Shown here one piece after another: positions 61,501 to 64,000 of a DNA stretch of 64,000 bases (the first letter of the stretch is position 1; each line of letters opens with the position of its first letter). The position numbers were made by a program. The stretch lies in assembly GCF_057098645.1 (NCBI RefSeq), contig NZ_CM169472.1; one strand, given 5' to 3'.

Positions 61501-64000
61501 TGGTCAGGGTGGAATGGGAACAAAATCCCACGATATTTTCACGCTACCGCTGTGTCGGGAGCATCACAACGAGCTTCATGCGGATCCGCTGGCGTTCGAA
61601 GAAAAGCATGGTTCCCAGGTTGATTTAATTTTTCGTTTTCTTGATCACGCCTTTGCAACCGGCGTGCTCGGGTAAAAGAGGTTACTGATGCGTATAGAGT
61701 TTGTTTTGCCTTACCCGCCGACGGTGAACACCTACTGGCGACGTCGTGGCAGCACATATTTTGTATCAAAAGCCGGTGAGCGTTATCGCCGGGCTGTGGC
61801 GCTTATTGTTCGCCAGCAGCGGCTGAAATTAAGCCTGTCCGGACGGCTGGCAATAAAAATTATTGCAGAACCACCGGATAAGCGCCGCCGTGACCTGGAC
61901 AACATTCTGAAAGCACCGCTGGATGCGCTGACGCATGCGGAAGTGCTCATTGATGACGAGCAGTTTGATGAAATCAATATTGTGCGCGGTCAGCCTGTGC
62001 CAGGTGGACGGCTGGGCGTGAAGATTTACGAAATCAGAGGTGGTAACGATGGCGCGTGATATCCAGATGGTTCTTGAGCGATGGGGGGCATGGGCAGCAA
62101 ATAATCATGAAGATGTAACATGGCCCTCGATAGCTGCTGGTTTTAAAGGATTAATCCCGACTAAAGTGAAATCACGTCCTCAGTGTTCTGATGATGACGC
62201 CATGATAATTTGTGGTTGTATGGCACGATTAAACAAGAATAATCAGTATTTGCACGATTTGTTGGTGGATTATTACGTAGGTGGAATGACATTTATGGCT
62301 CTTGCACGTAAGCATAGATGTTCTGATGGGCTTATTGGTAAAAGGCTTTATAAAGCGGAAGGTATTATTGAAGGAATGCTTATGGCTCTGAATGTCCGGT
62401 TAGATATGGATATGCGGTAGGGATATATAGTGATGAGGGTTATGTTTTCTGTGTTTATAATTAACATGTTTATTTTTTGATGGTCATGTATTGTGGAAGG
62501 TAGATAAAATGTTGCCTGGTGAATTGAAAATATTGATAATCAATCTTCATCATTAAATAAAAGGAGTGCTTATGTGGATTGTGTTAGTACTGTCACTGTC
62601 AACTCTCAGTTGGCATAAGGTAGTGGCTTTTTCATTGTTGACGGTGTCTGTTGTCCTGGCTGTGCTTAATGATATTATTGATTGGTCGGTGTTATTTTTT
62701 GTTGCTACAATCGTTTTTTTTATTATTTTGAAGTTCAACTGGAAATATAACGCCTGGGCTAAATCTATATATGAAGTTGGCATAGTTTTATCAGCCATAG
62801 CATTATCTTTCCATCTATGGCCAGGGTTTCACAATCCTGTAGTGCTAAATTCTGTTACTGTTGGCCCTCAAAGTACTCCCTATACAATGTATTTTAATTT
62901 TGATAAAGCGCTGGTGCCATTTTTGTTAGTCCTGTGTACATCTTCTTTGTTTAAAAAAGAAGTAAAATCAGAAGTGTCTTTGTGGAAGTGGGGGGCTCTG
63001 TCGCTCTCTGTTCCTCTTATCCTGTTTTTGGCTGTTTTTTTTGGTGGATTAAAGCCAGAGATTCATTTTCCTGAGTGGTTGCCAGAGTTTATATTGGCTA
63101 ATTTGTTTTTTGTGTCTCTGGCAGAGGAATCATTATTTAGAGGGTATATTCAATCACGGCTATCAGAAGTAACGTCTCCATTGGTTGCATTAATTGTGGC
63201 GGCTTTGTTGTTTGGTTTTTATCACTATTCAGGTGGTGCTTTACTTGTATTATTTGCCACGTTATCTGGTGTTGTGTATGGATTGTCATGGATGTGGAGT
63301 GGGCGTTTGTGGGTTGCCACCCTTTTCCATTTTGGTTTGAATCTGTGTCACTTGTTATTCTTTACCTATCCATTTTTAAAACATAATTGATTTTTTCTAT
63401 GGTTTTAAATTTATAAGACTGAAAAATAGCAGGACGTGACATTTGCATGAAAAATATGCACGGCAAAGCATTTACGTACGTAAAAAATCAGGTATGCTGT
63501 TAAGAGTGGTTATTTCGCCGCATAGCTTGACCCCGCCTCTGAGCGGGTTTTTTGTGCCCGCAAAGTAGCGCAGTGCGTTAAATGTGCTGGTAGTTATTAA
63601 TACAGGTCTTTCAGCTTGCTGGCTTTTTCGGCAAGAGTTATTGGTGTGTCACGTTAACCGGAAAGGGTAAAAAGACATGCTGAAACAGCAGGATATGACA
63701 GAAACCGCCAGAGTTGTGTTTGATGAATTAAGCGTCACCGAACCGGCGACAGTCGGGGAGATTGCGCAGAATACTTACCTTTCACGCGAACGCTGCCAGT
63801 TAATACTGACCCAGCTTGTTATGGCGGGTCTGGCAGACTATCAGTGCGGTTGTTACAGACGCCTTCAGTCCTGAAGGCTTTTTTATTTGTGGTAAATGGG
63901 CGGCTGGTGGGTGTTAGCGGCACCTGTCAGTCCTTTGCTTATGTGTTGATGATAATTTACCTTTTGGGGCTATAATTGAACTAACCAATTGCTAATGAAA

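Follow-up and report, generated by a model that had tools for sequence, protein, structure and literature searches.

A probable Q-dependent late-gene switch in a lambdoid prophage, with a palindrome as candidate Q-binding element

Here, we report that the 3' end of a 64,000-nt stretch of contig NZ_CM169472.1 (RefSeq assembly GCF_057098645.1; the whole analyzed stretch is called the window below) very probably carries the Q-dependent late-gene switch of a lambdoid prophage. The switch comprises a gene for a small antiterminator Q, a predicted late promoter (pR') separated from it by an inserted gene, a palindrome within the promoter that is likely bound by Q, a candidate pause element over the start site, and an intrinsic terminator (tR'):

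62049-62420, + strand: Q antiterminator gene of the Q21/Q933W family, its small product 123 aa long when read from the ATG (a GTG start at 62040 is also possible)
62566-63390, + strand: gene for a CPBP/Rce1-like membrane protease (Pfam PF02517, E=1.4e-19)
63471-63498, + strand: pR', with -35-like TTTACG (63471-63476), a 16-nt spacer and -10 TATGCT (63493-63498); predicted start A63505
63474-63481: perfect palindrome ACGTACGT, at -31..-24 (center about -27.5), between -35 and -10
63482-63487: A-tract directly after ACGTACGT
63502-63509: AAGAGT + GG, candidate sigma-dependent pause element (-3..+3 and +4..+5) overlapping the start site
63505-63555, + strand: predicted short pR'-tR' RNA of ~50 nt, its start transferred from the K-12 homologue
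63532-63553, + strand: tR', intrinsic terminator CCCGC-CTCTGA-GCGGG followed by TTTTTT (stem 63532-63547), from a terminator scan

In the mechanism that we propose, host sigma-70 polymerase would start at A63505 from pR' and, when Q is missing, stop about 50 nt further on at tR', releasing a short RNA with two hairpins. The small Q would bind ACGTACGT and load onto a polymerase held just past the start, probably through sigma re-binding AAGAGT+GG. The Q-loaded polymerase would then pass tR', the terminator of the following gene (orf65) and further terminators to reach the genes for holin, lysozyme and Rz. These lysis genes were looked for downstream and found in L001, a 100%-identical full-length chromosomal copy of the prophage, where they lie beyond the switch, on its strand and outside the window. 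Four + strand terminators stand between the late promoter and the holin gene in L001, and processive antitermination is therefore needed to reach holin. The locus thus has a same-strand Q gene upstream, a sigma-70 promoter, a nearby terminator and late genes downstream: the system is of a known kind, with most of the hallmarks of a Q-dependent cassette. A sequence-only reading of this DNA had already proposed the arrangement on which Q acts, a late promoter followed by a short terminated RNA. Its concept and its terminator held up, and the lysis genes that it said to look for are downstream; its promoter did not hold up, the real one lying about 80 bases downstream.

The late promoter and its start site

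In phage searches, homology to other phages starts only at 63471-63499, within the RNA proposed by the sequence-only reading, and continues through the terminator and orf65. Upstream of tR', the small-Q phages compared (434-like, DLP12, phiP27, cdtI, mEp460_4F5, Stx2a_1447 and PhiR40_1) have a common layout: an 8-9 bp palindrome, a 5-nt A/T tract, six variable bases, TAnnnT, GTTAAGAGTGGTTAyTTCGCC and a terminator. The overall comparison covers ~390 related phage loci; 120 were gathered by pattern, and 240 more were seeded on the Q protein only, to avoid circularity. The element was matched no more than 3.4 kb downstream of Q in 226 of these 240 small-Q loci, two matches later being discarded as spurious; of the other 14, most stop too close to Q, and three have a Q open reading frame (ORF) that went unrecognized. 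The element invariably stands between Q and the late genes and is oriented like the latter. Among 85 distinct Q-seeded sequences, T-12, A-11 and T-7 are present in 100% and positions -10 to -8 vary freely, which is the signature of a sigma-70 -10 hexamer.

The K-12 prophage DLP12 carries the same element between nmpC and essD, with its predicted start at NC_000913.3 position 577229. A Cappable-seq table from an uninduced culture (Ettwiller et al., 2016) lists a + strand start at U00096.2 576452, which, after a 777-nt coordinate offset, is exactly the predicted A, 7 nt past TATGCT; it is the only + strand start in that table between 576081 and 576907. The offset was checked against the essD start at 576621 (Kim et al., 2012) and against five neighboring starts, all of which fall on purines only with this offset. 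Conservation and the mapped start of the K-12 homologue point to a sigma-70 promoter that lies between Q and the late genes and needs no Q to fire, and TTTACG-N16-TATGCT with a start at A63505 is the assignment that they best support. The Adams 2021 supplements gave no match for K-12 start-site or 3'-end support. A model with lambda-like geometry, in which TAnnnT would be the pause element and the true -10 would lie in the upstream A-tract, was tried and rejected because the K-12 start falls 7 nt after TAnnnT; hexamers in the A-tract, moreover, lack T-7 in most groups.

The K-12 Cappable-seq data also hold a strong + strand start (score 90) at NC_000913.3 576858 (L130 4359), just upstream of and antisense to the nmpC start, which reads toward the DLP12 late promoter and terminator ~370 nt away. 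We know of no annotation for it.

The sequence-only reading had placed the late promoter further upstream, at TTGATT (63387-63392), a 17-nt spacer and TTTATA (63410-63415) on the + strand, about 110 nt before the terminator. Transcription would then start near 63424 and yield a ~130-nt RNA ending at the same terminator, with Q acting there. The hexamers do exist at that spacing, the terminator is real, and TATAAG at 63412-63417 matches the -10 consensus at five of six positions, although with a 19-nt spacer. The pair scores 4/6 + 3/6, its -10 lacks the essential A2 and T6, and the consensus promoter scan made no call at it; because equally good pairs recur about every 47 nt (~1,350 per strand in the window), it is no better than chance. 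It also falls outside the block conserved in related phages, which begins at 63471-63484. Its sequence is part of the CPBP insert and is absent from all relatives with another insert or none, although their Qs, of the same kind, need a pR' as well, and the 133-nt RNA would fold no better than shuffled sequence (z = -0.44). We give this promoter hardly any credence. A spacing of ~110 nt to the terminator therefore does not fit the transcription unit, which is predicted to start at 63505 and to give an RNA of ~50 nt; by the yardstick that the sequence-only reading itself set, a transcript starting within 63391..63425, its promoter assignment most likely fails.

Between the Q stop and the conserved block lie 33 to 3041 nt, in dozens of different values. 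This slot may contain nothing, an opposite-strand porin gene (Lc/NmpC), one or two reverse-strand genes, a GIY-YIG nuclease gene or, in this window, the CPBP gene, which is inserted cargo (a "moron") between Q and pR'. In several loci, the Q stop is only 33-59 nt before the block; where there is no insert, the palindrome begins 7-19 nt past the Q stop, and there is therefore no other place for pR'. These observations bear on a second alternative, in which pR' would directly follow Q (62421-62565), as it does in lambda. The CPBP gene would then be the first late gene, expressed in lysogens from a transcript that ends at tR', and the leader would be split, with the conserved block as its distal half only. 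A consensus scan does find three promoter-like sites at 62481-62553, between Q and the CPBP gene. The homology of Q relatives ends with the Q gene (query 374 of 541), which argues against a promoter at 62421-62565 serving Q, whereas conservation is 85% in the distal block. Most relatives carry their intervening genes on the other strand, insert-free loci have the palindrome and -10 immediately after Q, and the K-12 start falls at the distal block. A pR' at that position has very little probability in our view, and the three sites more plausibly serve the CPBP gene.

Cargo in this slot is also seen in a Stx2c (Shiga toxin 2c) phage with a Q of the Q-lambda family, which carries a 141-aa lipoprotein gene there (L005 1996-2421); cargo between Q and the late promoter is thus not restricted to small-Q phages. 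Insert-specific DNA of the window, between the CPBP stop and pR', includes an inverted repeat without T-run, TGCAT-N7-ATGCA (63445-63461). A 41-aa ORF at 63443-63568 that overlaps the late-promoter element has no family match and was taken as spurious.

The strong terminator that had been noticed at 63531..63554 was detected by our scan, with its stem at 63532-63547 and the T-run reaching 63553. Its sequence is common to SfV, Stx2c, phiP27, cdtI and 434-like phages and to DLP12, and the SfV record annotates it as a terminator. Different terminators take its place in some relatives, so that it is kept or replaced by another in every small-Q locus with enough sequence. The Q proteins of SfV and the Stx2c phages belong to the Q-lambda family (PF03589), not to PF06530, and homology of the window to these phages starts at the terminator itself. 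The ~100 nt between Q and terminator in SfV hold a lambda-type pR' (TTGCAT-N17-TAAGAT) followed by AACGATGGG, which also begins the lambda late transcript; in SfV and Stx2c phages, the shared terminator comes ~60 nt past the lambda-like pR'. Because the same terminator follows pR' in phages of two Q families, 63532-63553 is the tR' of a module common to phages, to which each Q type supplies its own upstream sequence.

The palindrome and the Q recognition helix

The Q protein of the window matches Pfam PF06530 (E=4.9e-52) and the solved Q21 protein (E=6.9e-8), and is annotated in RefSeq copies as "antiterminator Q family protein". Eight sequence types occur at the fixed position of the palindrome: seven perfect palindromes of 8-9 bp (ACGTACGT, ACGATCGT, GCGTACGC, GCGGnCCGC, GGAATTCC, GTTATAAC and TCGTTACGA) and one imperfect (ACAATCGT). 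Each of the seven types with a linked Q is tied to one predicted recognition-helix variant, with zero exceptions in the ~390 loci:

ACGTACGT: Q helix CSDG[YLH]IGK[RK]LQ
ACGATCGT: Q helix CSDTCIGKRLQ
ACAATCGT: Q helix RSDCWVGRLLQ
GCGTACGC: Q helix CSDGTIRKELQ
GCGGnCCGC: Q helix KDEKLIRIEIQ
GGAATTCC: Q helix ISHTQILKRLQ
GTTATAAC: Q helix ISLNQVVIRLQ

For palindromes GCGTACGC and GCGGTCCGC, the cognate Qs are of the mEp460_4F5 and cdtI types. The pairing holds across dozens of different intervening inserts. Among near-identical Qs, helices starting with GY, TC and CW go with the palindrome centers GTAC, GATC and AATC, and Qs with the same N-terminal half and a different helix have a different palindrome (GTTATAAC group versus ACGTACGT group). 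In the 9-bp form, the middle base is free to be T, C or A, in keeping with two-fold symmetry. Because its sequence changes with the Q recognition helix, the palindrome at 63474-63481 is likely the Q-binding site; the covariation is strong, if indirect, evidence, and lambda and phage 21 have their Q-binding elements at this place in the promoter as well. The seven natural palindrome/helix pairs constitute a ready specificity code that can be tested in vitro.

Start region, short RNA and points against the switch

Positions -6..+6 (GTTAAG A GTGGT) are 86-100% conserved, at least 92% everywhere but at -5, and are near-invariant even in distant relatives. AAGAGT+GG has the A at position 2, the T at position 6 and the G-rich "discriminator" that are also found in lambda AACGAT+GGG, and the sequence at +4..+14, GGTTA(C/T)TTCGC, matches lambda +8..+18 (GGTTAATTCGC) at 10 of 11 positions. 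Read directly, +1..+18 contains no hexamer with A2 and T6. In lambda, sigma engages at an RNA length of 13 and the polymerase pauses at +16. By analogy, the chances seem about even that the polymerase here pauses near +12/+13, earlier than in any studied Q system.

RNA 63505-63555 is predicted to fold into two hairpins, one near the 5' end (63506-63521) and the terminator (-14.9 kcal/mol). An Rfam search of 59500-64000 at a permissive threshold gave no family match in 63391-64000. Among relatives, the 5' hairpin (+2..+17) varies mostly by substitutions that wobble pairing tolerates (U-A to U-G, G-C to G-U), and its register is shifted by the paired changes T7C/C14A; such covariation is suggestive only. 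The high conservation of the short RNA leaves room for a regulatory role, which it may have.

Several observations weigh against the switch as we describe it. The pR' hexamers alone (4/6 + 4/6) are not significant, with ~120 such sites per strand, and many relatives have no recognizable -35 (TAACGC). The start site was measured in K-12, in a prophage other than this one, and its Cappable-seq score is low (1.7); this is expected because the RNA is very short, yet some doubt remains, and short RNAs may be under-sampled in start-site data. An element at -3..+3 would impose an unusually early pause, at about +12, whereas phages 21, lambda and 82 pause at +14 to +25. It is unusual for two helix-turn-helix protomers to target a palindrome of 8 bp, and Q21 uses direct repeats. 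Since IS1203 lies between the holin and lysozyme genes in L001, the switch may no longer cause lysis. A 2015 paper by Rueggeberg, going by its title, is said to attribute the DLP12 essD promoter to RpoE. Finally, a weak 5' end maps just past the T-run of the K-12 terminator (U00096.2 576509, count 7; L130 4787) (Kim et al., 2012). That 5' end could be a minor essD promoter or a processing site, and the local sequence is not conserved in the window.

Some of these points also bear on a third alternative, namely that the block is a self-standing small-RNA gene or the promoter of another factor such as sigma-E, and that the palindrome is a non-Q operator, in which case Q would have another site of action or none. 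Conservation of the transcribed part exceeds what a mere by-product would require, and the paper title just mentioned ties the DLP12 lysis cassette to RpoE. Terminated pR' RNAs can regulate, as StxS does (PMC7547250). The palindrome, however, co-varies with the Q helix and with no other consistently present feature, the element always has its place and orientation between Q and the late genes, and the -10 signature is that of sigma-70. We regard this alternative as improbable; a small-RNA role as such is compatible with a Q switch, not opposed to it.

Returning to the Q switch, we tentatively extend it to the small Qs as a group (110-135 aa, including K-12 QuuD, phiP27 and several Stx2 phages), at somewhat less than even confidence. 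These Qs would read one palindrome of 8-9 bp, centered ~27 bp before the start and reprogrammed by a few residues at the beginning of the recognition helix, and would load during an unusually early pause, caused by a -10-like element over the start site. Q and its promoter would be separable by kilobases, forming a preferred cargo slot (porins, CPBP protease, nucleases), and the conserved ~50-nt RNA would perhaps be a regulator. The palindromic Q site with an early pause is a testable and modestly novel reading.

Neighboring genes, significance and comparison with known systems

Several hundred E. coli chromosomes, including many from Shiga-toxin-producing E. coli O145, O111 and others, share the last 2 kb of the window at 100% identity; E2855 and RM9872 are examples of strains that carry this prophage. 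Features around the switch, within the window, are the following:

59854-60178: complete hok/sok type I toxin-antitoxin locus (Rfam sok, 107 bits)
59966-60178: Hok-family ORF, hokD in RefSeq copies
60187-60268: weak match to IsrK, a Salmonella prophage RNA (27 bits, where the gathering score is 50; E=0.006)
60247-60264: strong terminator AACCCGCTTCGGCGGGTT with T-run, at which the IsrK-like stretch ends
61688-62059, + strand: RusA gene
63556-63676: 120-nt leader from tR' to orf65, conserved across phages, with hairpin-like inverted repeats at 63571-63589 and 63615-63635 that lack T-runs
63677-63874, + strand: orf65, 65 aa, the first gene after tR' (PHROG 331, E=6e-37, "unknown function")
63861-63884, + strand: second intrinsic terminator, GCCTTCAGTCCTGAAGGC followed by TTTTTT (stem 63861-63878), overlapping the orf65 stop
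63949-63976, + strand: promoter-like ATGATA-N16-TATAAT, 10/12, the best consensus match in the last 4 kb

IsrK is itself transcribed from a phage promoter under antitermination control.

Both the 65-aa ORF and its terminator, as described in the sequence-only reading, are present, at 63677-63874 and 63861-63884; the terminator folds at -10.5 kcal/mol (z = -3.3). PGAP names orf65 homologues TrmB family, and the match to TrmB (PF01978) reaches 17.8 bits, below the 25.6 cut-off. A MarR Pfam match is also sub-threshold, and NCBIfam gives no match for orf65. The AlphaFold2 model (pLDDT 89) has an H-H-H-beta-hairpin layout, and Foldseek aligns it at TM 0.8 with OhrR, SarZ and other winged helix-turn-helix domains of the MarR family. 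orf65 is thus confidently modeled as a stand-alone winged helix-turn-helix domain. The gene is real and conserved, being kept in phiP27 (L23), SfV (orf47), cdtI (orf55) and Stx2 phages, and many phages have it as their first gene past tR'.

The TATAAT-containing promoter-like sequence reported at 63940-63975 is likewise there, at 63949-63976. Homology to phiP27, which has a methylase instead, ends at 63949, where this site begins. An AraC-family gene (L001 11013-11726), YdeO/GadX-like, starts 12 nt beyond the window end (64012 in window numbering). Because phiP27 homology stops there and this gene follows in L001, the site is probably its private promoter and lies outside the Q switch. The gene is most similar to the acid-resistance regulators YdeO and GadX and occupies the place after orf65 where other phages have a DNA methylase. 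Possibly, it belongs to the prophage AraC-like regulators of enterohemorrhagic E. coli (PatE, PsrA/B).

The downstream order in L001 is orf65, the AraC-type gene, tRNA-Ile, tRNA-Arg, tRNA-Arg, a SASA/NanS-p-like esterase gene, holin, IS1203, lysozyme and Rz; no stx gene was found in the L001 late region. The window edge and L001 form the late region of a Stx-phage-like lambdoid prophage. IS1203 occupies L001 15081-16294, between the holin and lysozyme genes. It has probably disabled the lysis cassette under this switch in L001, and the host prophage of the window is probably defective.

Lysis is under the control of late promoters, as is the release of toxin in Shiga-toxin phages, and outside the 933W type of Q the promoter has yet to be located. 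A comparison of Stx phages published in 2018 described pR' regions that "lacked the pR' site" known from virulent strains (PMC6266700). The element described here occurs in phiP27, Stx2a_1447/WGPS2, other Stx2 phages and K-12 DLP12, and an exact promoter, start site and candidate Q site are now available for that phage group. In the literature that we covered, to which the DLP12 papers of Rueggeberg (2013, 2015) do not belong, we found no sequence-level definition of pR' or of the Q-binding element (QBE) for the small-Q subgroup. For the window itself, the result is an ordinary one, a standard late switch.

The locus resembles that of lambda: the Q gene lies upstream, the promoter is presumed constitutive, the putative Q site falls between -35 and -10, Gs follow a -10-like element near the start, the predicted RNA is short and terminated, and several terminators precede the lysis genes. 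It differs in that the Q here is of PF06530 and lambda Q of PF03589, unrelated families; the RNA is ~50 nt long, whereas lambda 6S RNA measures 194 nt; the pause-like hexamer lies at -3..+3, over the start, rather than at +1..+6; a 1.1-kb insert parts Q from pR'; and the putative Q site is palindromic.

Q21 of phage 21 (structures 6P18 and 6JNX) is of the same Pfam family, with similarity over residues 12-93. In phage 21, too, the QBE is found between -35 and -10, with a -10-like pause element downstream of it; it consists of two direct TGAGCA repeats at -21 and -13 (PMC6606751). Unlike Q21, which has 162 aa, the small Qs have 123-126 aa, and the alignment ends at Q21 residue 103. TGAGCA is absent from 63460-63500, where a single 8-9 bp palindrome stands at -31..-24 instead.

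StxS, the Q933W-linked pR'-tR' RNA of Stx1/Stx2a phages, is 258 nt long and is processed to 74 nt (Sy et al., 2020; PMC7547250). Like StxS, the short RNA described here would arise as the by-product of a late promoter subject to antitermination in a prophage of E. coli, and the late region is laid out as in StxS phages, with tRNAs and a nanS-p-like esterase downstream, here without stx. Sp5 and 933W are not among the listed phage matches of a 300-nt query around the element. The short RNA is probably distinct from StxS, set apart by length and Q lineage and not by sequence alignment.

A further close system is that of DLP12 (QuuD, essD/rrrD/rzpD), whose lysis cassette is reportedly under the control of a Q-like factor, going by the title of a 2013 paper by Rueggeberg. 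DLP12 has the same ACGTACGT palindrome, -10, start region and terminator; its Q is 96% identical to that of ev017, which in turn is 86% identical to the Q of the window. The two loci differ in their cargo, nmpC on the opposite strand in DLP12 and the CPBP gene here, and in what follows the switch: the holin gene comes directly in DLP12, whereas orf65, the AraC-like gene, the tRNAs and the esterase gene precede it here.

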